Assembly (NCBI GenBank): GCA_008632985.1
Contig: QPGO01000139.1
Location: forward strand, 186,001-209,248
DNA length: 23,248 bases
Direction: 5' to 3'
Source: Psammoneis japonica
Taxonomy: Eukaryota
Both the position numbers and the translations under genes were made by a program. Below, piece after piece: positions 1,893-22,358 of this stretch. Position 1 is the first letter of the stretch. The number at the start of each line of letters is the position of its first letter. Below the pieces are notes generated by a model. That model did not search any database. It had not been told where the DNA came from and saw only the letters and a program-made list of their open reading frames with translations.

Positions 1893-4800
1893 CTATGCAC
1901 TGACGGCAGGCCACGCGCTGTCTTCGCCATTCGCGGCATCATCATACTCATGTTCTCTGAACTGCTGAACAATGCCATCAATCTCTTTGTACCTGTTTTG
2001 ATCAGTCAGAAGCAACCGCAGAATCTTGACTTTGTCATCGTTATAGGAGGCGTCTGCATCCAAAACACTTGTGCGCGCACAAGCAAAGCTCTTGGGCCCG
2101 GCCACAAGGGTCTTCGACGGATATTTCTTGAACTCGTTGGCATAGATCACCTCGCATACGCACCAAAGCCGGCGGTAGAGGTCGACTTTTGAATTTCGCA
2201 AAACAAGGAATTCCTCCGCTTTTTTCAGCGCCTTGACAAACGGCGAATCGTCGAGTGAGACGTTCAATTGGTTTCCAACGGTGCCCTCGTCACCTTGTAA
2301 AAGGGCAAAGGAGCAAATCCAGAGATTTGGCTTCGTCGTCCTTTCGAGAAACGTTCTACGAATGGAGTCAACGAAAACACAAAACTCTTCATCCCAGGCG
2401 TGTGTAACAAAAACGTCTACCATTCGCCCCTGGGGATTCAAGTGAAGAGCGTACGATGTTCCTTTCTCATTGCAGACAGGTGTGACAATGTCTTTCACAA
2501 CATCTCTCATGGTCTTTTCGTGGTATCTGGCTCCGTACTTCTGCTTAGCCTTGTCGTGCAACGCCATTAGCTGCTTATACGCTATTGACCACATTTCAGG
2601 GCACTTTTGTAATTTTTCGTTGGTATCGGATCGGTGTGCTGTTGCAATGCTGGAGTTGATATCCCGAGAATACCCATCGCTGTCTTCCGCTTGATCTGAT
2701 TCATCATCTTCTAGGAGCCTTTCTTTCAATTTCCTTAGCGATAGTTTCGGGGGTAGACTAGAAAGCCGCAACAAACAGTCGCATGCACTTGAATCAGTGC
2801 CTTGAGCTTTCATGATATAGTAGTCTCCGTTCAAGCTTATTTCGTAGGCCGTTCCCATGCCTAACCAACAGCTTCTCTGCGATGACTTTACATTCAAGTT
2901 GATGGCAATTAGAGTGCTGCTTGTCTCCAAGTAATTCACGCGGCAAATTAGCTTATCTTCCATTGCATCGGCAAGCCTCTTTATCTCCGTAACGGATACG
3001 ATGCGGGCAACTCTTGGGTCTTCGTCTGATACGAACTTTGTCAACTCGTCTGCAGCAACGTGGGCATCCCGTCCAGTCACCTTCTTCTCAATCGTCGAAA
3101 AGAGCTGTTCAACGTAGTGTCCAACGAACTGAAACGACGAGCTTGTTGGTGTGCTTGTCAAAACCTTCTCTTTTTGCCCACCACCGTGGAGATGTAGCAC
3201 TAAGGTTACTTCATCATCGGATTGTAAATCATAGTTGGAAAACGACATCCAGTCCAAAAGCTCTGAATCGCCCTTGCACAGATGTTGATGCTCAGTGGGA
3301 ATCCGCAGTTGTCTCTCGATTTGTTTTTTCAGAGCAATAACTGGATCCAACGGTCTCAGTCGGAATCGCGTGGTCGTGCTATCCATCATTGTCCTTACTA
3401 CTATATCAATTGGGGGTAACTGTTCCGAATCTATTGCAAGATTTCTGTTTTAAACAAGACAAAGAAGGACGTACGAAACGATGAGCCCCTATCAGTCGTG
3501 CAAGCCCCGCAGAAGCTACTACACCGACAACAACGACCGTATCACATATGCTTGCACTTACACCAAGTTTAGCAAGTTGTCCAGTTCTCGTTCCTTGCCA
3601 TTCTGAATGACGCGGATGCCACCTTCCTTTATTCCACTCTCTGCCACAACAACATTGTTAGAAAGAGATTCGCCCCTACACGAAAGCTGCTGTTGATCCG
3701 TAGGAATTCCCACCAAGTCAAAAACTTCTTTTTTCACATCATGTATTGTGCTTGAATATTTTACACGATCAACCACAATGATATGGTTCGTGCCCTCCAT
3801 GACTACCACCGAGAATTCTGTTTCAGTGAATTCCGAGGTGTGTATACCTCGCATCTGTCTTCTTGTGCTATCTGACACTAAATTCTTGTCCCGATCGATG
3901 TCATCTGGCAAAAGATACTCAAAATTGCTGAGAGATTTTGTAGCTGGTGGTGGTCCAGGCTCGCAGACAGCACCCGGCAGTATCGATGCATCTCTGACTA
4001 AGAGTGGTCTCGTCGACGAAGCGCTCGATGATGGACTGGCTGAAGCAACACCGCCTACATCGGTATGACTTTTTAAGCTGTCCAACACTTGGTTCGCACG
4101 CTCAGCGCATCGATCGGGAAATCTGTTTGCGGCTAGTGTCATCAGAGTGAGCAGCTCTGACGTGCTCTTTCGAATCAGCACGGCATTGTCAGCAGAGAGC
4201 AAAAAGTTTCTCATCGCAACGCAAGCGTGTTCTTGAAGCTTCCAAGAGTCAGGGAAACGTCGCATCGCAGATATTATTGCACTTATTTCACCTTCGGTAG
4301 CAATCATCACTTCGTTGGTGTGGACGTTCACAGCTAAGCTGGATAACGCTCGACATGCTTCAACCTGCAACACCTCTGAATCGTAGTGGGACCACATTGC
4401 GAAAACAATAGCATCCACCCCTCCCGCATCCCGAATTAAGTTCTTGTTACGAGAATTTGAAGAAAGCGTGCATAAACACCCACAGGCCTGCTTTTGAACC
4501 ATTTCGTAGTTGATGTTTGCCATCATTCCGTTCACTACAAGTCCAATTCCGCCTGCGTCCGCGATGACAACTTGGTTTTGCTCCAACACGGCCAGGCTCC
4601 ACAAGGTAGTGAACGCCCTCTCGAGCACGGTCGGAGCTCCCATGAATTCCTTCATTGACGCTGTCACCGCATGGATACCCCCAACTTGAGCTATTTCTCT
4701 CTTCGCGGCCGAATTTCTCATCGCGACATTCTGCAAAACTCCAAGTCCCTTCTCTTGAAATCCTTGAGCGTCTGGGTGATACCTCATAAGGTCCACAACG

Positions 4801-7800
4801 GTCTGCACAGTACTCGTGTCAGCTATAGCTTGCTCCTCTATGTCGGATGAAAGATTCAAAAGAGCAGCGCAAGCTCCTTCAATGAGCTCAACATTGTCTC
4901 TGTTCCTTGGTGTTTTCATGGCATTTACAACCAAAATGAGTCCTCCCTGTGACGAAATCAGCATCCTGGACTCGTGGTCGACGCTTAAATGCGACAAAGC
5001 CTTACATGCATCCATTTGAATGCGGTCGTTCTCGGTGAAAACCGCCAAAGCGCTAACAAGCATATCGATTCCATCAGTCTCGGCTATACAAAGATTGACC
5101 TGGAGATTCTCAGTCGAAGAAAGAACAGCGAGAATGGAACAACCCCTTTCTTGGATACCTTCTGACGATTCGTGCTCGACCATCGTGTCAATTACTACCA
5201 CTATGCCTCCACATTGAATAACCATGCCTTCGTCGATCAACGATAAGTTGAATATCACATCCATAGCCTTCTCTTTCAACTCGATTCGATCCCGGTCGTG
5301 CTCCAGTATCATATATATTATAGCAATGACGGCGTCGACATCAGAGTTATCGAGCTGGTATGAGTGTTCTCGCATGGCCGTTGTGATGGAGACAAGTGCC
5401 CGCATTCCCTCAAATTGCAAATCTGTCTCCCCTCGGTACAGAGACATGGCGCCAACAATTGACTTGAACATCTTCTCCAACAAAGACGACGACTGCTTCT
5501 GCTGCTTGGCTACTAAAGCCCATAAAACGCCAAACGCCTCCAGCCTTAAAGACACCTCCTCAGAGCGCTGGTCGATTATTGCCGTAACAGCGTTAACTAG
5601 CACCTCACCCTTCATGGCATTGGAGCTCGGCTTGGAACCAAGCAACAGATTTCTAAGTACCTTGCAGGAAAGTTTCCGTGAGGCTTCGGATTCCAGTTTC
5701 GTCTCCATCGCATCTACTATTGCATTGACGCACTCTGGAGGTAATATCGCAGGCTTCCCGCTGTCGGCTACCGCTAGGACAGAAATAAGCTCCATTGCTC
5801 GGCATGCGGAGGGCTCCGATTCAGACTCCTGCAGGATCTCAGTGGCAGCATCAAGACAACTACATGCCACTAGAGCCTGCCTGTTCCTTTCAGACGACGT
5901 CGCAATCGCACAAAGCGCAGAACACAACCCCACCCGACCAACTGGGCCGCTGTTGAGCGCTGCATCGACGAGATCCTCCATAAGCTCAGAATCCATTGAT
6001 CTTGACGGAGATTGAATAGAAAGGTATGCAAGCGCACGGCTAGCTTCTTCGCAAACTGAAGGGTCAGGCAGGTCCAACGACAATGCCCGAATCGGAATCT
6101 CCGATGGTAGATCAGATACTTCTGTGATCTGCGCAACAGCAACGTTCGCAACGAAGGCGCAAGCTGCGGCTTGCAGCGGAGCCGAATCTAAGTGGTGGTT
6201 AGTACCGAGAATCAGCGCCTGAAAAGCATCCGGCAGGCATTCTTGTAGAACGGGCGGCACAGCAGCAGAGAAAGCCCAAAGGAGGTGACTTCCAGCTTCC
6301 ATGATCCCCCTGTTGGCCGGAAATTTCACCATTGCGCTCACCACGGCTTGGATTCCGTGGGCTTCGTTGATACATATCTTGCAATCCTTTCCGACGGCGG
6401 CCATCGTTGAAAGGAATCCACAACACGCTTCTTGCAAAGATTCGATTTCGTCGTTAGGTTCTAATACCATAATGCGTGCCGTCGCGAAGATACCCTCTGT
6501 CGCACTTTTTGTCGCGATGTTGTCATTCCTTATCCCCAGAAGCTCACATAAAAGTGACACAGTCATTTCAAACAATCCAGGAGTCGTAGACGGTGCCTTC
6601 ATCAGATCTGTACACATAACAACTCCGTCTTCATCCTTGATCTTTTTCAAAACTTTCTTTGTTGCATCACTGTCTTCCTGGTCAAGCAAACGCCATAGTA
6701 GTTTCATTGCCCACTCTTCCACAAAAGGCTCCTTTTTTACATTTTTCATCGCCTTTGTAACAGATGAGACGACTTTAGCATCGATAGCAGCAGCAATGTT
6801 GCTTCGTATCACTCCCTTCCCTTTTTCAAGATATTCAGGGTCTTCGTCTGAAAAGTGAACAAGGCTATGCATCGAACGACACGCCCACTCCAACACCACG
6901 CCAGAACTTGCATTAACGGTCAAGATCCTGGCAATGGCTTCAATTCCCCTTGCTCCAGCGATCGCCTCCATGTCCTCGGGGAAACTAGCAAGGCACGCAA
7001 GTAAGCCCAATGCCCAGGGCATATAATCAATCTCTTTCTGCATTCGGGAATTTCGAAGGGACTCGACAACGATCTGGGCGACCCTTGTTTCACTTGCCAC
7101 GGACATGCTCTCGTCGCTAACAGCTACTAATGCCCACATTGCACCGCATGCTGCAGCCATCACTCTGGCATCCGCCACGTACGTGCCCATGAGGTCTCTA
7201 ATATCATACACCGCTTGGTTCTGTTCGTCCGGCGACGGCGTTTCTTGCAAAGTTGGCCCGAAATTTCTCAGCTTGTGCAACTTGCGTCGCACCAGAATCG
7301 CATCGCCTTTTATTCTGGGGTCACGGAGATCCGCAAAGATCTCCGACGTGCTTTCTTCCGTCCTGCCGCCGGTGTAATCCTCTTCTGCAACCCTGAGCGG
7401 AGGTTGTTTCGGCTGGATATGCCGCGAAGACGTACCTGATTTAAACATTTTTGAAGATTCAGGAGCGGGTCTATGGGATGATTCTGAGGCTGAACGATGA
7501 AGAATAAGTTCTGAGGCTGATCGGCGTTGGCGACCGTGTTCGGAAGCTGGTCGAAGATGACTGTGAGAAGAATCTCCGAAGTGTCGGTTAGAAGCATCGG
7601 ACACGTGTCGGTGTGATGATTCTGGTTTGTGTCTACTGGATGGATCCTGCACGTGTCTCCTGGACGAGGACGACACGTAGTCGGAGTACCAGTTAAATGA
7701 TGAATCTGCCATGTGTCGATGGGAAGGATCTGCGATGTCTCGTGTTGATCTTGGCCGGTGGCGCCGTGCACTATCACGTGAAGTAGAGCCTCCACGTCTA

Positions 7801-8090
7801 TCATCACGCGGAAAAGCTTGCATGTATTGGGTGTGAATGTGGGCCGGTACCGTATCAGCGTTGCAGCGAATGCAAGTGCCGTTGTAAACGTGATCGTTGC
7901 TGAGCGGTTTCATCTTCAAATACTTTTTCTCATGAGTCTTGACACCGCACCGAAGACACACTCCTCTCCTCTTTGCTATACTTTCACGTTCTGCTTGGCT
8001 GAGGGCTGTTCCGTGCTTGTCGAAATACGGAATAGCGTTGCTGTTCTGGATATTGTTGAGTTCATCGTATGGATTAGGTAGACCGGACAT
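1893..8090 (-). CDS. 2026-aa multidomain protein: N-terminal CxxC motif pair, armadillo repeats, two ubiquitin-like domains, C-terminal HET/TIR-like domain
   Basis: Exons 8090-3562 and 3444-1893. A 117-bp phase-2 intron (3561-3445, GTAAGT...TTTTAAAACAG) joins the 1510-aa and 498-aa ORFs in frame (..NLV-NLAIDSEQLPPIDIVVRT-MMDS..). Motifs: CLRCGVKTH..GTCIRC; many ARM units (e.g. GGIHAVTASMKEF, VQKQACGCLCTL); Ubl1 IHDVKKEVFDLVGIPTDQQQL; Ubl2 LKKQIERQLRIPTEHQHL..LVLHLHGGG; then FVTHAW, LWICSFALLQ, SPF, RRLWCVCE. Confidence 0.88.
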
Positions 8091-11125: not shown

Positions 11126-12673
11126 CTAGCTATCTGAGTCTGCTAATAACTCTTCCACCTGATCATGTGAGACATCTTTGACACTCTTGTGGCTCCATCC
11201 GCTGTAAGGAACATCTTCCTTTCCGCTGGCCGCATGCTTCGCCCAGTTCTGAAAGTCCTTCATCCCAAACAGCTTCAACTGGACATTCTTTTCCCGCTTG
11301 ATACAGCTCTCCAACGTTTCTCCTTGGTTTGCTCCCAGCTTTAATAGACTAAACACGACACTGAGCGACAGTGGGCACTGAGCCTCCATGCGTCTTAAAA
11401 GGTCCGCCGCAACCTTGATACCCTCCAGCTCTTCCTCGTTGTCTGTTCTCGTAGATGCCACTTCTCTTAGGCCCTCCATAATACCCTCCACGGACGGTTG
11501 GCGATCAAAAATATGTGCAAATGTGGCAGCGTAATTCACCAAGTCACTCTCGCGTTCTGCCTCCCACGGAACGCTATCCACAACCAAAGACGGGTCTTTG
11601 CCCTCCAATTGTTCAAAGCCGGCAAACTTTCCAGTGCTGTCGGTCCACATGTCACGATTAGACGCGTGGTATACTGTAAAGGCATGCAAGGCATTGGCAA
11701 CGGCACGGTTTCGAAACTTGGCATTTGCATCTCCCTTGGGTGGTGCCTCACCCATCATGCGGGGCTTGTCCTTGATTATTGCTTGTTGATTCCAGGGACT
11801 AATGTCGGAGAGCGTTCGTTCCAACGCTCCCAACACTGTGTGCGACTCTACGTAATTTGTAGCCAGTCCGGTTTCCATCATGTCCGATGCATTGGCTTGA
11901 TAACCAGTCAAGGCCAAGAGTTTGCCCAATCCGCTGTAATCCGCGCAGGGCAACGCGAACTCCCAGCCAAGCCGTGGTAACATGTAGGAAAGTCCAATGG
12001 GATCCAACGACAAGCCCTTGGAGGGGTTCGTAATGGAAAAAGATGTCTGCCGAGTAGCCAAAACATAACTACCCATACAGAAAGCATACCCTCCGTCGTG
12101 AACGTGTCCGTGTGGCAACGTAATGACGGGAACTCGAGTTTCCATTTGATCGCCCCGCGTCGCAAGAGCTAATTGCTCCAGCGAGTTTAACAGAAACAAG
12201 AGTGCAGATTTATCATGACACATGCCCGGCGTATAAACGTGGATAGGATTGTATCCGCCAGCCACATGACCGCCTTTGTCTGGAGTAAACCCAAAATCAG
12301 CGAGATCCACCTGATACCTCTCTGTCTCTCGGCAGGATTCTGGAAGCACCAGAGGGTTATCCTCGTGACTATTGGATGCAATCAAGACACTGTTGATACC
12401 ATCATTCTTTGACAAGACCTTGATGCGGTACGCCAGTCCCTCTAGTTCTTCTCCCGTCAAGAATGGGGCACGCAGAAACACTCGCCTCGTACAGCCAACC
12501 TGACGAATCGCAGCCCCAGCAGAACCGAACTCCAAGCCTCGTGTGGGGATTTTCAGAGCCGAATCTGGAGCAGACGCCTTTCTGGCTTCTATTTTAGTGA
12601 TGCGGGCATTTCTAGCAGCAGTTTTGCGGGCAAAGCTGGAATAAGCCGTGGCTGCAGCCGTCGACGTTGACAT
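11126..12673 (-). CDS. 3-hydroxyisobutyryl-CoA hydrolase-like (ECH_2/crotonase family) protein, probably mitochondrial, 515 aa
   Basis: Intronless ORF with likely start MSTSTAAATAYSSFARK. Family motifs HGHVHDGGYAF, GLSYMLPRL, LLALTG..ASDMMETGLATNYV, CPLSLSVVF, TLESCIKRE, DF..W, SVKDVSHDQVE. Confidence 0.8.
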   Translation of the reverse strand: MSTSTAAATAYSSFARKTAARNARITKIEARKASAPDSALKIPTRGLEFGSAGAAIRQVGCTRRVFLRAPFLTGEELEGLAYRIKVLSKNDGINSVLIASNSHEDNPLVLPESCRETERYQVDLADFGFTPDKGGHVAGGYNPIHVYTPGMCHDKSALLFLLNSLEQLALATRGDQMETRVPVITLPHGHVHDGGYAFCMGSYVLATRQTSFSITNPSKGLSLDPIGLSYMLPRLGWEFALPCADYSGLGKLLALTGYQANASDMMETGLATNYVESHTVLGALERTLSDISPWNQQAIIKDKPRMMGEAPPKGDANAKFRNRAVANALHAFTVYHASNRDMWTDSTGKFAGFEQLEGKDPSLVVDSVPWEAERESDLVNYAATFAHIFDRQPSVEGIMEGLREVASTRTDNEEELEGIKVAADLLRRMEAQCPLSLSVVFSLLKLGANQGETLESCIKREKNVQLKLFGMKDFQNWAKHAASGKEDVPYSGWSHKSVKDVSHDQVEELLADSDS

Positions 12674-12821
12674 GGTCAAGATCAATGAATGAGGACGAGT
12701 TGTGTGATGTGTGATTGAGGCGTGAGGCTGATGACGACTTGCATCGTACTGTACAGACAGATGCTCGGCAATGTGAAAACACACACCTAATGATCGGACA
12801 TGACAACACCACCGCAATCGC

Positions 12822-12886
12822 ACGTAGAAAAGGACGTGAAAAACGTACTGACGTCCCCACGTACTTTGTCCCGTATCTTTTTACGT
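12822..12886. promoter_or_regulatory. Cluster of ACGT cores in a bidirectional promoter
   Basis: Six ACGT at 12822, 12834, 12843, 12851, 12859 and 12883, including TGACGT at 12849-12854, between divergent ATGs at 12673 and 12943. Confidence 0.5.
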
Positions 12887-13599: not shown

Positions 13600-16500
13600 T
13601 TAAGAAGAAGTGGCTTCACAGAACTTCCTTGCGTTCTGGAACATCTGTAACCAAGGACCAGCCGCAAGGTCCTTCCATTCCGGTGGAGTCCACGGCCACT
13701 GCCAGGTCGTAAAGACACGCTCCGGATGAGGCATCATGGCCAAATGCCGTCCATCCTTGGAACAAAGAGCGGCAATACCGTCGGGACTGCCATTGGGATT
13801 GAAGGGATACTCCTCCGTCACTTCGTTTGTATCATTGACGTATCGCAAGGGTACTTGGTTTTCCTTGCGCACGGAATCGTAGACAGACTCGTCTGGAAAG
13901 TGGAAGCGGCCTTCACCGTGTGCCACCCAAATACCAAGAGACGAACCCTCCATCCCCTAAAGGTACGACCAAGCAAGCAACTCATGAGAAACCAAGCAGA
14001 AACGAATATAATATATCGAAAACACAACGGAACTTACCGAGAACATAATGGCAGGGCTCTCCTGAATCTGAACACTGGAGAAGCGGCTTTCGAACTTGCC
14101 ACTGTCATTCTCGAGCAATCTAGGCTGCTTGTCCTCGGGTAGACCTGCACTATCCGGGATCCATCCGAGCAGCGCCATGAGCTGGCATCCATTGCATACC
14201 CCCAAACTAAAGGTATCCGACCTCTGCCGGAAGGCTTCGAATTGCTTGTACACATTCTCGTTGAATTTGATCACTCCAGCCCATCCCTTGCCACTGTCAA
14301 GAACATCGGCAAACGAGAAGCCTCCAACAAAGACGATACCACGGAAGATATCCAGGGTGACCTTGCCACTGACAAGATCACTGACTGCTACATCCCACGC
14401 CTCAAAACCGGCAGACAAAAAGGCAGAGATCATTTCTCGGTCTCCATTGCTGCCTTCTTGACGAATCACGGCAACCTTGTACTTGTCTTGCTGCTTCATG
14501 ACGGCTTCCTCGGTTGGCGCGGGGGTGTATGTCAATTTCCACTGCGGTGCTTGGCGAGACTTGAGCCCCGCTTCTTCTTGTGCCACGCAAACCGGATTTC
14601 TCTGGCGCTTTTCAAGGTGAAAGCTGGTTGCCTCCCAAACATCGCGAAGAACAGTCATTTTGTCATTAATGCTTGGCGCACCGTCACCCACAGCAATCTT
14701 GATAAAGTCTCCAGCGCTGACGCTTCCAATCTCTTCGCAGGGAACACCGGCAGCAGTGTACTTGGCAACGACAGAAGCAACATTAGAACCCGCAACTTCA
14801 AGAACCAATCCAGCTTCCTCGTTGAAGAGAGTACCGACATATCCGACTCCCGCCGAGTCTGGCACCTTGACGTCAATGGAACAGTTTCCGGCAAACGCCA
14901 TTTCCATCAAAGTCACTGCGAGTCCACCATCGGATCGATCGTGTCCGGCAAGAATGGTACGCTCGTCAATCAACTCTTGCGTCACGATAAAAGCACTCTT
15001 GAGTACCGCAAAGTCTTCGATATCGGGGCTGTCGTTTCCAATCTGACTGTACACCTGCGCAAGCGACGATCCTCCGAGACGTGCCTTGCCCTTGCACAAG
15101 TCGACAAAGAGTAGCTTGGAGTCACCGGGACACTTGAGGTCTGGAGTGACAGTCTTGGTAATGTCTGGACACGTCACATAGCACGTCATGGTGAGTTCAC
15201 CGGGAGCCTTGACAACCTCTTCACCACAACGCGCCGCCATGGAGAGTGAGTCCTTGCCTCCGTCAATACCACATCCAAGCGCCAGGAATGAATCACGCAG
15301 TGCCTGACACGCATCGTACATTTTGGCTCCCTCCCCGGGCAGCTTGGCGGCATACATCCAGTTGCCACTGGCCTTGATATCTTCAATTTTCGAAATCTTG
15401 GCCCATACGAGATTTGTCATGGACTCGGCAACCGTCATGCGGGCCATTGCCGCAGAATCAATGAGACCCTTGATGGGCTGTTCGCCACAAGCGACGGCCG
15501 TTCCCGTAATGCCAAAGTGTGTATGAGCCGTGACACCGAGATTGGCAAGGGGAGTTGGAGAGGACCGACGCATGGCTGCTGAGCCACAAGACCGTCACGG
15601 AGCGATCAACCTGACAAGACGACAAGTGTAGAACAAGAGGTAAGTCAAGATATGGTAAAGCAACACACTTCTATCCGACAAGGTTCTTTTTTCTCACCTT
15701 GTGCACAAGAAAGCGCTTGGACCCGACCGACAAGAGTCGAAGCACACGGTCCACCGCATCCGACACGGTGGTTCCTTCGGGTAGAACAAGCGGTTTCAAG
15801 TCCATGGTCTGATGGTCATCCACAAAGGTCTTTTGAGGCATTTTACCAAGAACAAGTTCCAGGGGCAGGTCCACCGGAGTGCTCCCATCCTCAGAATCGT
15901 GCACCACCACCTTTCCATCTCCCGTCACGGCGCCCAAGATGCGAATGGGACAATTCTCACGCTCGGCAATCTCTTTGAATACCGCTTCGTCGGACGGACG
16001 AATGAGAAGCGCATTGTTTTCCTGGTATTCAGCTCCCCAAATTTCCAGTACTGACAAGGTGTTGTCACCAAGATAGACCTTGAAATAGTTTTAAGTAGGA
16101 ACGAGTTGAAGTTGTTGTTTAGAATCGGATACGTATCCTCGAGCATGCACCACAACAACAAACTGCAACACAAAAAACAAACAACTCACCTTTCGGATAT
16201 CATACGACGCCCCCGCTGGTTCGACAATTTCCTTCAACACGTTACCGTTTCCACCGGCACCCTGATCGTGTACGGAAACAATTGGATTCTTATCTCCCAA
16301 ATCACAACACGCCCGCATGAGACGGTTCATGCGGTTTTCCATTTCCGCATCACCCGCTGCACGGCATCAAAGTCCAAATCGGCATTTTCCGAACTCTGTA
16401 CACGAGACGACGCGGCCCCACCACCGATACCAATACGATACGCCGGTCCACCCACCTTGACCACCAACATGTCCTTTTCGGGTTCCCCCTTGGTGGTGTG

Positions 16501-17898
16501 TCGTCCATCCAATTGTCCAACACCGGCTGAAAACATAATGGGTTTGACCCATTCAAAGCGTTCCCCATTTTCCAATCGCAACCCAAACGACCGTGTAAAT
16601 CCATGAATGACGGGTTCACCGTATTTGTTTCCATAATCCGACGCTCCGTCACTGGCCTTGATTTCAATATCCAACGGCGACGCCAAATTGGACGGGTACA
16701 CAAACGAATCGTCTTCCCACGGCAAATCGTAGGATGGAATGTGGAGATTGCCGACACAATACGAGGACACTCCCGCCACGGGATAGGCCCCACGGCCCGT
16801 CGCCATGACATCACGAAGCCGTCCACCCGTACCCGTTTCGGCACCGGGAAAGGGAGCGACGCCACTGGGAAAATTGTGTGTTTCCGCCGTCAAAATGGGA
16901 TGCAACAATTGCTTTTCTACTTGAACGGGACCGGCTTGATTCACACGAGCTGGACGCAAGGCGTCACATTCGTAGCCGTAAATAGAGGAGGAATTGTCAT
17001 GAAAGGCAATAACAGAATTGTTGGGCACGTCCTTGGGCAAGGTCGCCTTGACCATTTCAAAGAGCGTCAGTGGTTTCTCCTCGCCGTCAATGACCATTTT
17101 GCCACCGAAAAACCAATGACGAGAATGCTCCGAATTGGATTGGCCCATGTCAAAGCATTCCACATCGGTCGGATCGCGGCCTAGCTTTTCCTGTAAACAA
17201 AGAGAGACAGAATAGCAGTTTTGAGCTTTTTCTCTTCTCAGAAATCATATCAACACATACATATTCATTTTCCTTACCTTGAATAGATTGGTATAATAAT
17301 CCAAATCAAAGTCATCAAATCCCAATCCCCGCTCGGCATTGATCTTTTCCAAGGCCGCTCGTCCCTCTGTCATGATGGGTACCGTCACAACGGGTTCTCG
17401 GTGTGCTCCCGAATCAAAGGTTTGGAGAGGCTCGGTGTATTCCTGCTGTGTCATTTTGTCGTGCAGCAACAACTTGATTTGTTGGAGCGCGTCTTGAGAT
17501 AATGGATTTACTAAATCAAATTGATATCGCAAGGACCGTTCCAATCTCGATACAGGCAAGTGACACGCCTTGCAAATCCCCACCGCGTTGGAGGAAAAAG
17601 CAGACGTAAACGTCATGCGTGGTCCAAACTCCATCACTAGACTATCGTTGTTGGAGAGTGCACTCTGTTCCAACAAGAGTCCATCACGATCAAAGGTTTC
17701 TGCCAAGAGCCATTCCAATTGTTGTGTTTGATCTTGCGTCAATTCCTTTTGAAGCTGGATATTAAAACACGTTTCCGTGGCAATCGCTTGAATGAGAGAC
17801 GCGTCCGCCTCGAGTCCAACCGACGCAAGTGTTTCCTTGACGGAAGGCAAGAGCGAATGTGATGGTTCGGTTTTGCGATAATAGTGAATAATAGACAT
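13600..17898 (-). CDS. PFAS: Phosphoribosylformylglycinamidine synthase (large-type PurL/FGAM synthase), about 1311 aa after correcting three 1-nt deletions
   Basis: Exons 17898-17278, 17190-16190, 16078-15698, 15610-14038 and 13956-13600, with GT-AG introns of 87, 111, 87 and 81 bp. Motifs QSNSEHSRHWFF, ETHNFP, GAETGTGGRLRD, HDQGAGG, EYQE, GGKDSLSM, HDRSDGGL, and the glutaminase GVCNGCQ...MPHPER. Confidence 0.96.
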
Positions 17899-19411: not shown

Positions 19412-19963
19412 TCAACCAAACAATCCCCAATTGTGAACTTGCAGCGACGACACAATGTGTGTAAAGACGTCATTCCACTCTTGTTGCTGATTTGTTGGTT
19501 GTGTGTTTGGTACCGAAAGGGTAATGAGCAAATCGGTCGACACTGAATCGAGTCGAATGACACACAGCGCGGTGGCAATGGTTTCGTTGCGAATGGTTTG
19601 CATTCCCGATCCGAATCGTGCCACTGCTCTCTTGCCTTGCAAAGATGCATGTAGGGGTGCAGCAATTCCATCATTGTTGTTTTGAAATTGTGTATGCGTC
19701 GATCCGTTCGTTTCCGCCAAATCCATAAAGTAAAATCGTGCCAAATCGTCCGAAGAGTGTTGTTGCAAAATCTCCACCACGAGTGCGGCTTCAAATAGGT
19801 TGGAATTGGGAATGACATTTTGAAAGACTTCTTGATGATCGGGAACTTGACGAACCGTACTGACATCTCTCCATGTGGATGGTATATCACATGACATGCT
19901 ACCGCCAAACAAGGGGTGTGCTGTAGACCAAGACAAGGTTGTTGTTGGTGTTGGTGTTGTCAT
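19412..19963 (-). CDS. MOG1: Ran guanine nucleotide release factor (Mog1p family), 183 aa
   Basis: Motifs PLFGGSMSCDIP, DVSTVRQVPDHQEVF, LVVEILQ, TDLLITLSVP and C-terminal SLQVHNWGLFG. Confidence 0.9.
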   Translation of the reverse strand: MTTPTPTTTLSWSTAHPLFGGSMSCDIPSTWRDVSTVRQVPDHQEVFQNVIPNSNLFEAALVVEILQQHSSDDLARFYFMDLAETNGSTHTQFQNNNDGIAAPLHASLQGKRAVARFGSGMQTIRNETIATALCVIRLDSVSTDLLITLSVPNTQPTNQQQEWNDVFTHIVSSLQVHNWGLFG

Positions 19964-20219
19964 GGTGTTGTGTTGTGTTGTGGGGCTGCTGGTGCTAAAC
20001 ACGAGAATTGGATGAAAAAACGAAAAAAGCTTTGAAAAAAGAAAAAACCAAGNAAAGGCATTTTCAAAAAAAAAGAAAAAGAGGAAACGCGCCAGAAAAT
20101 CTGTCGTACAAACTGTACCACGCCAAAACGCATGTACAATCTACGAACCGTCTGGTATTCTGCAAATGCCGATGGCATGTCATCACTCATCACTTTTTTT
20201 TCTGTCGTCGTAATCCACC

Positions 20220-20887
20220 ATGACGGTCGTTCATGCGCTTCCCGATTTACCTCTTGTCTGCTTGAAAACGGCAGACTTTACCAAGACGACAGCCACTGCG
20301 TTTCAAGGCAAAAATACCGTGATTGGTATGTCCTTATACGAGAGAGATTGAGTCATGTTGTTGTTTTGATGCCATCACGACGCATCTATGCNNNNNNNNN
20401 NNNNNNNNNNNNNNNNNNNNNNNNNNNNNNNNNNNNNNNNNNNNNNNNNNNNNNNNNNNNNNNNNNNNNNNNNNNNNNNNNNNNNNNNNNNNNNNNNNNN
20501 NNNNNNNNNNNNNNGGACGTTCATTTTGTTTCCATTTGTTGTGATTCACTCGACGGAGCTCGTGAAATTCTGGAATCTCCGAAAGACGAACCCAAATGGA
20601 ATGCACTGTCACACTTTTACATGGACCATGCATCGAAAGAACAAGCCAAACAATACTTTGGTTTCAAGTCGGTACCCTTTTACGTTGTCGTCCATGCCGA
20701 TGGGAACATTGTACAGCACGGCAACAAGGTGGATTGGAACGATATTCCTGGTGTAGAAGATGCAAAAGAGAATCAAACCGCAACAACCAAGACAAAGCAA
20801 CAACAACAAGTAGTCGTTGAAGATCCGCAGCAACAACAAGAACCCGTCATTGCAGAACGGGTCTTTACCATGGATGAGGATTTCTAG
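20220..20887 (+). CDS. Thioredoxin-fold (redoxin/TlpA-like) protein, interrupted by the assembly gap
   Basis: Exon 1 20220-20325 (MTVVHALPDLPL...FQGKNTVI) then a GTATGT donor. After the gap: DVHFVSICCD..AKQYFGFKSVPFYVVVHADGNIV..FTMDEDF*. The expected active-site motif would lie within the Ns and cannot be seen. Confidence 0.7.
20392..20514. other. Assembly gap (123 N)
   Basis: Run of N. Confidence 1.
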
Positions 20888-21104
20888 AGAGAGAGGCGGT
20901 AGTAAGAACTCTATTATGTATTGAAAGGCGGCTAGTAGTTATTTCAACCTCGTTACAACGGTAGTAGTACTATATTCCAGCACAAACATTGCCATCAAAA
21001 GTAGCGTTGGTTTCTTGTATCCATACCGCTCGGCGAAGCTGGATCATTGCAGTCGCTACATGCATCAGCAAGATAACCTTGTACATACTGGTAGGTATAT
21101 TCAA

Positions 21105-22358
21105 TCACACCATTCTCGTGTATTGCTGAGGATTTTCATGAACGTCCGAATTGTCTTGTGGCTTTTCCACAGTATGACTCTTGTTGTTGTCAGGCACAAC
21201 AACATCCACTTGACTTTCCAATGAGGCTGGCGGTGCCGTTTTGTTTTGGAGGTATTGTCGCAGTGGCGTATCCACACGCTTATACCACAGATACGAAAAC
21301 CCATACAAAACAAAAAAGGCCGGTACAAAGTAAAAGGGTCTCAAGTAAAGGTATCCACGTTTCCAATATCCATCTTGTAGACGCATGGCAATGGCAAAGA
21401 GTGGCCATCTCCAAAGATAGACTTGAAAGGCAAAATCACCCATCGTCGACAGGCGGGAAGTGCAAAGAACCGAGCCGTATAAACACATGTCCACGTCACA
21501 ACTTGATCCAAACACCAAACAATCCAAATAGTGGCATGGTGGCATAGACCAAGAGACAATCGTAGGCTGTCAAGTCGTGATGAATAGGAACGGCCAATAT
21601 CAATAAAAACACAACGGGAAAGACGCCATCGGCCAACCGTGCTGCCAATTTGGACGAATGCCTCGTACAAAGAGTTCCGCCAAGGCGCACCCAGCACAAA
21701 TTCAGCCAGACGGAGTGGTGGGAAGGTGTAGAAAAAAGAGCCATTGTTGTGATGTATCTAGCGAACCATTCTTGAATAGCAGCGTGATGGAAATTGGAAG
21801 TACGGCAATCAGTGGTGTTGCCATACAATACCACTTGATGTGTGAGTCTCGTATTTTGAGCAATTGTATTTGTAAAAAAGGAAATGCCAACCAATGTGCC
21901 GCCATGGTGGATAACGTCCATCCCGGTGTGTTTCCAAAATACGCAAAGGGCGTAATCCAACATTGCAACAGCGTCGTCACGAGCGGAACTCCAATCAGCC
22001 ATTGTCTCCACGAAGTATAGTGTTGTCCCAAAGCTCGAATCACGAGTGCCACCACGGTGGAAGCATAATAACACGCCAAAATGGAACCAAATCGTGATTT
22101 AAAGTAATTGCGTGTCGTTTTTTGATTGCCAAAATCCCGTGATCCATAGGCGTATTGCGAACAATAACCACTCAACACAAAGAAAAACGTCACGGCCACA
22201 TAACGTCGCATACAAAAACGTTGATAGACCGTTCCTTCTTCGTCTAATTGTGCATTATAATTGTGAGCAAAGACCAACCAAAAGGCTACAATAAAACGAA
22301 AACCGTCCAGTGCGGGTAAGCGGGGTTTTGTAGTGTGTTGTTGTACTTGCGGCGTCAT
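21105..22358 (-). CDS. Acyltransferase family 3 (OafA-like) membrane protein with about four apparent frameshifts
   Basis: RLPALDGFRF..VFAH, AVTFFFVLSGY, FKSRFGSI, LLQCW, NTPGWTLS. Continues across frames as YTFPPLRLAEFVLG / ALAELF / DGVFPVVFLLILAVP / LSTMGDFAFQVYLWRWP..YKRVDTPLR. Shifts near 21735, 21686, 21632 and 21517. Confidence 0.8.

Follow-up and report, generated by a model that had tools for sequence, protein, structure and literature searches.

A possible gene fusion in a diatom joins an ARM-repeat protein, two ubiquitin-like domains and a TIR-like domain of a large algal family

The window analysed here, a stretch of 23,248 nucleotides, carries on its minus strand two open reading frames which, once a proposed 117-nt intron is spliced out, would encode a 2026-aa protein. 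From its N-terminus, this predicted protein has two CxxC motifs, a region of ARM repeats, then a linker, a first ubiquitin-like domain (Ubl1) and a second one (Ubl2) ending in LHLHGGG, followed by an orphan spacer and, last, the C-terminal domain. We place an evenly balanced confidence in the reading of this locus as one two-exon diatom gene, which would have arisen when a conserved ARM gene lost its stop and came to read into a downstream gene for the two Ubls, the spacer and the TIR-like domain. Judging from sequence comparison, the ARM part has its ortholog in a protein found across diatoms; the C-terminal domain is, in its predicted model, a TIR-superfamily fold.

The open reading frame listing of the window gives ORF1 at 8090..3558 (1510 codons) and ORF2 at 3389..1893 (498 codons), both on the minus strand, as are all the domains and motifs of this protein described below. 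The in-frame intron that the first-pass annotation had proposed between them is consistent with its signals (GTAAGT...ACAG) and with open frames on both sides, and the features listed there (CxxC, ARM, linker, Ubl1, Ubl2, spacer and C-terminal motifs) are all present where it had located them. Exon 1 (3562..8090) is an unbroken frame from the ATG at 8090, comprising codons 1-1509 and two bases of codon 1510; the intron (3445..3561) runs from GTAAGT to AAAACAG and has the stop TAA of ORF1 (3560..3558) inside it; exon 2 (1893..3444) supplies 516 codons and a stop. Among the five GT sites examined, GGT/GTAAGT was the only donor of GTAAGT consensus, and six alternative in-frame GT/AG pairs would remove parts of Ubl1 or Ubl2. 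A comparable intron is found in the neighbouring purL gene of the same window (17277..17191, GTAAGG...TTTACAG, 87 nt), and frame 0 had the best codon-usage score in all five segments tested. Retention of the intron would instead yield two or three separate products, with an ARM-linker-Ubl1 protein ending at the TAA at 3560..3558 and ORF2 starting at its own ATG at 3389. The existence of this ATG is in favour of such an arrangement, as is the fact that the joined ARM-Ubl-TIR architecture was seen in no relative (114 ARM relatives; 297 proteins). It is however opposed by the consensus donor overlapping the stop and by the exon-2 frame, which opens at 3449, only 5 nt upstream of a pyrimidine-rich acceptor. 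Furthermore, the first strand of Ubl2 (IDIVVRT) is encoded in frame after the acceptor but ahead of the first ATG of ORF2, so that a start at 3389 would lose it, which counts against separate translation of ORF2. Adding this upstream strand indeed widened the Pfam ubiquitin match of Ubl2 from profile positions 6-71 (E 6.7e-6) to positions 1-71 (E 2.8e-7, 30.6 bits). We regard separate products as fairly improbable.

The ARM-protein-like body (residues 1-1340; 4071..8090) was delimited by Pfam matches and by full-length alignments with relatives. Its ARM repeats span some 1050 aa, from about residue 290 to residue 1340, with Pfam matches to ARM_LRRK2 (E 1.4e-20), Arm (E 1.1e-12) and also ARM_ARMC5. 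Ahead of them, a motif search located a CxxC...CxxC pair (residues 45-76; 7863..7958), with motifs at residues 45-48 and 73-76. This pair is conserved in relatives, at least two CxxC being present in the first 200 aa of 60 of the 85 ARM relatives checked. A total of 115 relatives of the ARM part were found, with a best identity of 78% over residues 1000-1340. The similarity to the diatom-wide ARM protein, which reaches 76-78% identity over these same residues, is collinear with residues 1-1340 and full-length, CxxC pair included, and the N-terminus aligns with the ARM orthologs from residue ~5. The kinetoplastid relatives of the ARM part bear the name 'LRRK2 ARM repeat domain-containing protein'.

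The alignment ends at residues 1333-1344 in 95 of 114 ARM relatives, and 88 of the 114 terminate at most 4 aa from codon 1340; P0157 and P0166 stop at the position of codon 1340, and ORFs that come from transcriptomes and are labelled complete (P0180, P0215) are among those stopping near it. For 49 relatives, the alignment starts at or before residue 30, ends at residues 1333-1344 and is followed within 4 aa by the relative's own stop. None of the 114 ARM relatives has a Ubl extension past residue ~1344; the ARM-Ubl-TIR fusion is therefore lineage-specific, and it looks recent. On the basis of this comparison, the window copy is the only one of the ARM protein that continues beyond the usual stop: the diatom-wide protein normally ends at about residue 1340 with no effector attached, whereas the window copy reads on. 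This bears on the earlier proposal of a sensor-effector protein, in which the role of the ARM part as a sensor is weakened because its ortholog works without an effector. The ARM part may rather be a passenger or a regulator than an evolved sensor.

At the position of the orthologs' stop, codon 1340 (4071..4073) is AAA (Lys), one base away from TAA, and an open, Ser/Pro-rich linker of 85 codons follows (residues 1341-1425; 3816..4070). With such a small difference, there might still be two genes, one for the ARM protein and one for Ubl-Ubl-spacer-TIR-like. AAA would then be an error at one base, or else a stop loss without function that is very recent or confined to the strain, and the second gene would start at Met1413 (3854..3852), a possible internal start in the linker. 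The clustering of the relatives' stops around codon 1340 agrees with this, and so do the position of Met1413 just ahead of Ubl1 and the coding signal of the linker, which is the weakest of the segments (GC3 0.39, codon log-odds 0.008). Two observations argue the other way. The linker is open in the right frame only, where it has no stop while the remaining two frames contain 3 and 4, for which the chance was estimated at ~0.01, (61/64)^73 x 1/3; and the 219 nt available are very short for a 3' UTR, a promoter and a 5' UTR together. We consider this separation of the two genes unlikely. The 297 proteins compared included none similar to the linker, to either Ubl or to the spacer, and metagenome scans with linker plus Ubl1 and with the exon-2 protein returned no relatives.

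Both Ubls score above the gathering cut-off of Pfam ubiquitin (PF00240, 25.4 bits). Ubl1 (3591..3815), which is without a diglycine tail, reached E 1.1e-7 and 32.0 bits when scanned alone, and in the PDB it matched residues 16-62 of ubiquitin as well as the Ubl at the N-terminus of ISG15 (E 3e-5). Ubl2 (3177..3410), with the tail LVLHLHGGG, aligned along its whole length to ubiquitin residues 2/3-76, with an identity of ~32% (25/77 positions, counted manually from the alignment). HMMER alignments to ubiquitin and polyubiquitin placed the first two Gly of its GGG (3177..3185), the candidate processing site, on G75-G76, in agreement with the ubiquitin-like diglycine end previously ascribed to this domain, and the alignment continued past the GG as at a polyubiquitin junction. 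Deubiquitinases use Arg72 and Arg74 of ubiquitin for recognition, and Ubl2 has His at both of these positions (LHLHGG vs LRLRGG). A ubiquitin fold followed by GG and by further protein is also the arrangement of polyubiquitin, ubiquitin-ribosomal fusions, SDE2 and the ISG15 precursor, and the tandem of Ubl1 and Ubl2 resembles the di-Ubl of ISG15. By contrast with processed ubiquitin fusions, the window Ubls sit mid-chain in a 2026-aa protein, the tail is not LRLRGG, cleavage at the GG is predicted, and no orthologs were found in which the site could be conserved. In SDE2, as reported in the accounts cited here, the UBL is cut at its GG by a deubiquitinase (PMC13572447; PMC5131917). By analogy with SDE2 and with ubiquitin-fusion genes, the Ubl2 diglycine is probably a site of deubiquitinase processing, at which the spacer and TIR-like domain, together ~428 aa, would be cut away from the ARM-diUbl part.

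The first-pass annotation had also described the C-terminal domain as TIR-related, and its predicted fold agrees with this, while its profile alignment is suggestive of it. The AlphaFold model (pLDDT 91, pTM 0.85) adopts a flavodoxin-like alpha/beta TIR fold over most of the domain, with a TIR-fold core at residues 94-264 of the 270-aa model (1914..2426), in line with structure matches and with alignment to TIR_2. When this C-terminal end was submitted to Foldseek, TIR chains were returned: every match listed was a TIR-containing chain, with a best E of 1.4e-3 and a probability of 1.00. TIR domains headed three structure searches, and the TIRs of SARM1 and TIR-1 were among the best matches. 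From sequence profiles, hhalign of the family alignment against 19 bacterial TIR_2 domains gave a probability of 57%, E 1e-4 and a score of 35.6 over 84 columns, as compared with a probability of 0.3% and E 0.18 for the reversed control. The aligned stretch runs from betaA to alphaC, and the Glu of the domain falls on the Glu of the TIR_2 WxxxE; this Glu, at the start of alphaC, is the one that acts in catalysis in TIR NADases. In the family alignment, the conserved domain covers ~220 aa (1947..2603) and consists of an N-terminal helical cap and a TIR-like core. The motifs FVTHAW, LWICSFALLQ and YRRLWCVCE are present and contain the H, Q and R/W/E that are invariant in the family, including the His of FVTHAW on strand betaA (2400..2402) and the Glu of RxWxxxE (Glu413 of ORF2; 2151..2153). 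This Glu was invariant in 40/40 aligned family sequences, and the motif R.W...E was found in 172 of 182 family members.

The domain nevertheless differs from TIR domains such as those of SARM1, of the plant TNL proteins RPP1 and RUN1 and of bacterial TIR_2, since it has no Pfam TIR match (hmmscan of the window protein, E<=1), a ~60-aa N-terminal helical cap and invariant motifs of its own (FVTHAW, LWICxFALxQ and SPF). Resemblance to the fungal-type HET domain had been proposed as well. The HET consensus comprises three conserved blocks, and the family-invariant blocks FVTHAW, LWICxFALxQ and RxWCxCE occur in the order of that consensus, with which alone they were compared. This block order may speak for the resemblance; Pfam HET (PF06985) speaks against it, having matched neither the window protein nor, in their Pfam annotation, any of 54 profile hits. 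Similarly, of the 35 Pfam families that 40 relatives gave at E<=10, the 25 listed include neither TIR nor HET. As PF06985 detects neither the domain nor its relatives, the domain is, by the Pfam test, not a member of HET. PF06985 also gave no match in 404 prokaryote genomes (3 + 401; a set of small-genome bacteria). HET and the window domain nonetheless share several traits. Both are terminal, HET being the terminal death-effector domain of NLR-like proteins. As far as the HET analysis of Dyrka 2014 describes it, the remote similarity of HET to TIR is ~100 aa long and fades after alphaC, which is also as far as that of the window domain extends, and the PdTIR structure 3h16 is a weak hit for HET, as it is here. 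The same study mentions separate proteins with Pfam-annotated HET in diatoms and haptophytes (Dyrka 2014).

The relatives of this domain form a large algal group, unannotated in Pfam, of terminal domains of receptor-like proteins. In an exhaustive search (E<=1e-3), at least 1143 representative sequence clusters matched, over the ~220-aa C-terminal domain only. The counts do not draw on a word-indexed search with ORF2, which gave one relative against these 1143. The nearest atlas clusters were mostly diatom, haptophyte and green-algal. A scan of viral contigs with the family alignment gave no match, and neither did a scan of prokaryote contigs with a single protein, a method that catches close relatives only. 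Among 112 family members scanned, LRR was found in 18 and Roc/COR in 7, CHAT+STAND, WD40, Ank, RCC1 and lectins each occurred in single members, and no Ubl domain was detected. The TIR-like domain was terminal in 89/89 multidomain members, and in a crude hydropathy scan, 18 of 103 members had a hydrophobic stretch (19-aa window) ahead of the domain, 13 of these stretches being no more than 55 aa away.

Its relatives form the ends of receptor-like proteins with LRR, Roc-COR, STAND, WD40 or transmembrane parts. A role as an effector or in signalling fits the domain, and this part of the earlier sensor-effector proposal is supported. By analogy with TIR and HET effectors, the TIR-like domain is probably an output module, consuming NAD+ or signalling on self-association. 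It might alternatively have no part in immunity or cell death and be a non-enzymatic adaptor or a nucleoside/nucleotide enzyme sharing its fold class, for example of the deoxyribosyltransferase type. We think this improbable enough, since TIR domains topped the three structure searches and the WxxxE Glu aligned with that of TIR_2, and since LRR, Roc-COR, STAND+CHAT and lectin-plus-TM partners belong to receptor or conflict systems, not to metabolism. Innate immunity and regulated cell death have hardly been explored in marine microalgae, diatoms among them. With its TIR fold, its invariant Glu and its invisibility to Pfam, the family resembles a missing component of the algal receptor repertoire. 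In its account of the field, a 2025 study presents TIR-based antiviral systems as previously undescribed in microalgae (PMC12489294). No description of the family or of the architecture was found in the literature within the search scope, outside which most subscription journals lay.

The first-pass annotation had not recognised this architecture from described proteins. SARM1 and its C. elegans counterpart TIR-1 have the architecture ARM-SAM-SAM-TIR and thus, like the window protein, carry an N-terminal ARM part and a C-terminal TIR in one chain. The architecture thus has a partial precedent. Instead of the SAM domains, the window protein has two Ubls and the orphan spacer, and no Pfam SAM family was found in either ORF; its ARM part of ~1050 aa, unlike that of SARM1, has as its ortholog a diatom protein that stands alone.

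From a mechanistic point of view, the fused protein might work in two SARM1-like ways. The fusion may be real but never cut, the Ubls being integral to it (docking, proteasome or ubiquitin-binding partners, spacing) and the ARM part restraining the TIR-like domain as in SARM1. Uncleaved internal Ubls are common, many such domains never being cleaved, and this, together with His for Arg in the Ubl2 tail and with the SARM1 and TIR-1 TIRs ranking among the best structural matches, favours an uncut protein. However, internal Ubls that stay uncleaved are usually without the LxLxGG tail, which Ubl2 has retained despite its low identity to ubiquitin, and the ARM part is orthologous to a protein that works without TIR in other diatoms. 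An uncut, ARM-restrained fusion is thus possible, if somewhat unlikely. Alternatively, the protein could be a SARM1-like ARM-TIR switch in which a deubiquitinase cut after the Ubl2 GG frees and activates the TIR-like effector, a combination that we hold to be very unlikely. If true, it would tie the activation of TIR to processing of the ubiquitin type and would offer a handle on a large, unannotated family of TIR/HET-like algal receptors. A ubiquitin-type GG placed ahead of an effector would make this fusion, apparently a single-lineage event, a possible natural experiment on effector restraint.

Between the candidate cut and the TIR-like domain lies the orphan spacer of ~190 aa (2604..3176), which had no match in Pfam, the PDB, the representative library or the atlas. 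N-myristoylation of the new N-terminus that a cut after GG would create was considered and dropped, as the residues do not match the motif for this modification. In the model of the exon-2 protein, Ubl2 and the spacer were predicted with a pLDDT of 29-58 per 10-residue block.

With high confidence, the C-terminal domain of the predicted protein belongs to the TIR superfamily, as the module shared by a family of receptors or effectors. An exhaustive search of the representative library returned 1143 clusters at E<=1e-3 (117 at E<=1e-30), and family matches, among those listed, were confined to residues 263-481 of the second open reading frame (ORF2). Across a 40-sequence alignment, the His of FVTHAW, the Gln of ALLQ, the Phe of SPF, the Arg, Trp and Glu of RxWxxxE and a Gly were invariant. 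AlphaFold, supplied with this alignment, predicted a helical cap and then an alpha/beta core (pLDDT 91, pTM 0.85). Structure searches with this model were mutually consistent, the Foldseek matches listed being TIR-containing chains only (best E 1.4e-3, probability 1.00, none below 1e-3; query-normalised TM 0.21-0.34). At the sequence level, Pfam detected no family for the domain and a PDB profile search only weakly touched the bacterial TIR 3h16 (E 1.2); the family profile was therefore compared with that of 19 TIR_2 domains cut from bacterial genomes. Across an 84-column alignment reaching from betaA to alphaC, hhalign gave a probability of 57% (E 1e-4), versus 0.3% (E 0.18) for the reversed control, and the invariant Glu fell on the Glu of the TIR W...E motif. 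We give about an even chance that the domain works as a Glu-dependent effector of defence or cell death, either by consuming NAD(P)+ or by signalling.

The first-pass annotation had called this domain HET/TIR-like; its TIR half is borne out by the predicted fold and the Foldseek matches, whereas the Pfam HET model did not detect the family. HET is itself described as remotely similar to TIR, with PdTIR and TcpB as best hits and a similarity fading after alphaC (Dyrka et al., 2014, available text), and the algal family appears to share such remote similarity, here from betaA to alphaC. Among the sequences aligned in that paper are proteins of diatoms and haptophytes to which Pfam does assign HET. 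Since these are already annotated and the HET model misses the family, the latter is, by this Pfam test, a separate, unnamed family of TIR/HET kind.

The nearest atlas clusters were unnamed and mainly diatom, haptophyte and green-algal, some members coming from MMETSP transcriptomes; no relatives were found on viral contigs, nor on prokaryote contigs in a search that finds close relatives only. In a Pfam scan of 112 longer members, LRRs occurred in 18, Roc and/or COR in seven, CHAT plus STAND NTPase in one and a Ubl in none, other partners being WD40, ankyrin, RCC1, C2, PAN, chitin-binding, ricin-lectin, ephrin-receptor-like, kinase, YEATS and DUF6824. Of 182 stored members, 93 are domain-only or fragments; in the others the domain always sits at an end, the N-terminus in 29 and the C-terminus in 60. 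A crude hydropathy scan of 103 members picked out 18 in which a strongly hydrophobic 19-aa window precedes the domain; in 13 of these 18 it lies within 55 aa, a placement like that in ectodomain-TM-TIR receptors; the sequences suggest Toll-like single-pass receptors in algae. Stored relatives P0100, P0085, P0126, P0112, P0107 and others bear such a segment at most ~55 aa upstream, and other members carry lectin, PAN or chitin-binding domains. In another relative, P0020 (1025 aa), the TIR-like domain (28-249) is followed by a CHAT protease domain and then a STAND NTPase; this predicted layout, in a microbial eukaryote, is NLR-like and caspase-related.

Both ubiquitin-like domains announced in the first-pass annotation were recovered by the Pfam ubiquitin model (Ubl1, scanned alone, E 1.1e-7; Ubl2, E 2.8e-7). 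In the PDB, Ubl1, which lacks a diglycine, matched the stretch 16-62 of ubiquitin as well as the first Ubl of ISG15 (E 3e-5). Ubl2 aligned to ubiquitin from residue 2/3 to 76 and, polyubiquitin-like, beyond the junction; the ubiquitin-type GG tail proposed earlier was thus confirmed, LVLHLHGG lying on LVLRLRGG. Given this tail and identity at 25 of 77 positions (counted from the alignment), Ubl2 is a diverged Ubl with its tail retained. Deubiquitinases cleave SDE2 at its GG (PMC13572447; PMC5131917), and USP1 cleaves itself after the diglycine of an internal UBL (PMC5131917); by analogy, a cut after the GG of Ubl2 is possible, if rather doubtful. Its tail has His in place of both Arg of ubiquitin, and there were no orthologs for checking conservation. 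The spacer that follows (~190 aa after GGG) had no match in Pfam, the PDB or the atlas, none of the 150 matches listed from the 1.84-billion-protein representative library extended upstream of query residue 135, and its model had block-mean pLDDT of 29-58.

The window is eukaryotic DNA, with introns in its genes. On the minus strand, a 1510-codon ORF1 (8090..3558) precedes the 498-codon ORF2 (3389..1893). ORF1 ends in ...TTG GT|GTAAGT, its TAA stop falling within GTAAGT, and a candidate acceptor, CTTGTTTAAAACAG|A, lies 117 nt downstream of this donor (proposed intron 3561..3445), the exon-2 frame being open from 3449, 5 nt ahead of the acceptor. Among five GT sites examined, only GGT|GTAAGT carried the GTAAGT consensus, and each of six alternative in-frame GT/AG pairs would cost Ubl1 or Ubl2 some of its sequence. 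The stretch that follows the acceptor, upstream of the first ATG in ORF2, codes for the initial strand of Ubl2: adding it extended the Pfam ubiquitin match from profile positions 6-71 (E 6.7e-6) to 1-71 at the E-value reported for Ubl2, and made the ubiquitin alignment end-to-end. The candidate intron is similar in style to a purL intron at 17277..17191 (GTAAGG...TTTACAG, 87 nt). We infer, with good support, that splicing joins ORF1 to ORF2; the predicted product has 1510 + 516 = 2026 residues, and this whole chain rather probably comes from one spliced mRNA.

The ARM protein was nearest to proteins of the diatoms Fragilaria crotonensis, Nitzschia, Cylindrotheca, Thalassiosira and Epithemia. 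Query residues 1000-1510 retrieved 115 relatives, the diatom ones at up to 78% identity and all covering only 64-68% of the query. In a full-length BLAST (114 relatives), 95 alignments ended at residues 1333-1344, and in 88 of these 95 the relative's own C-terminus lay no more than 4 aa away; of these 88, 49 also aligned from residue 30 or earlier. The same end point was found in P0180 and P0215, transcriptome-derived ORFs marked complete, and the termini of P0157 and P0166 lay exactly opposite ...QVLDSL(K) of the window. The ARM part, to which the N-terminal CxxC pair belongs, is thus a protein conserved among diatoms, whose usual stop comes earlier. At the orthologs' stop the window has AAA, one base from TAA, followed by an open 85-codon Ser/Pro-rich linker that leads into Ubl1, with no in-frame stop versus 3 and 4 in the other two frames; frame 0 scored highest for codon usage in each of five tested segments, the linker being weakest (GC3 0.39). 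The ARM-Ubl join was absent from every other sampled diatom, and metagenome scans gave no relative of the linker, Ubls or spacer. With the relatives stopping near residue 1340, the AAA codon and the open linker, the join is therefore real in the DNA, yet lineage-specific. The ARM family (~1300 aa; window 4071-8090, minus strand; relatives P0155-P0269) is diatom-wide with a conserved N-terminal CxxC...CxxC, and distant kinetoplastid relatives bear the name 'LRRK2 ARM repeat domain-containing protein'.

In the simplest history, a conserved ARM gene would have lain upstream of a ubiquitin-fusion-type gene (di-Ubl, spacer, TIR-like), and a TAA-to-AAA change would have joined the two. Processing at the GG would still set the effector free, so that the fusion would cost little; without processing, the chain would resemble SARM1, which combines ARM and TIR in one chain. 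The whole had been proposed to be a sensor-effector protein; since other diatoms have this ARM protein working by itself, the ARM part has more probably been carried along as a passenger, or newly enlisted as a regulator, than evolved as a sensor.

The first-pass annotation did not recognise the architecture from described proteins; our literature search, from which subscription journals were mostly absent, found no description of the TIR-like family or of an ARM-Ubl-Ubl-TIR-like protein. The available text of a 2025 haptophyte paper relies on Pfam models to define TIR genes and states that no TIR-based antiviral systems had previously been described in microalgae (PMC12489294); its supplements may list genes of the present family.

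The neighbouring genes, all on the minus strand, encode ordinary housekeeping proteins: an enoyl-CoA hydratase (ECH_2, one ORF, 11126-12823), an FGAR amidotransferase (purL, 13957-17898, intron-split into at least three ORF pieces, the C-terminal one sharing 44-61% identity with bacterial PurL across ~500 aa), a Ran-binding Mog1 homolog (one ORF, 19412-20002) and an Acyl_transf_3 protein (one ORF, 21702-22358). Mog1, ECH_2 and Acyl_transf_3 give no sign of a defence island. An unannotated 251-codon ORF without a Pfam match (20132..20887, plus strand) overlaps a low-GC stretch at 20001-21000 (GC 0.37 versus 0.44-0.54 in the rest of the window).
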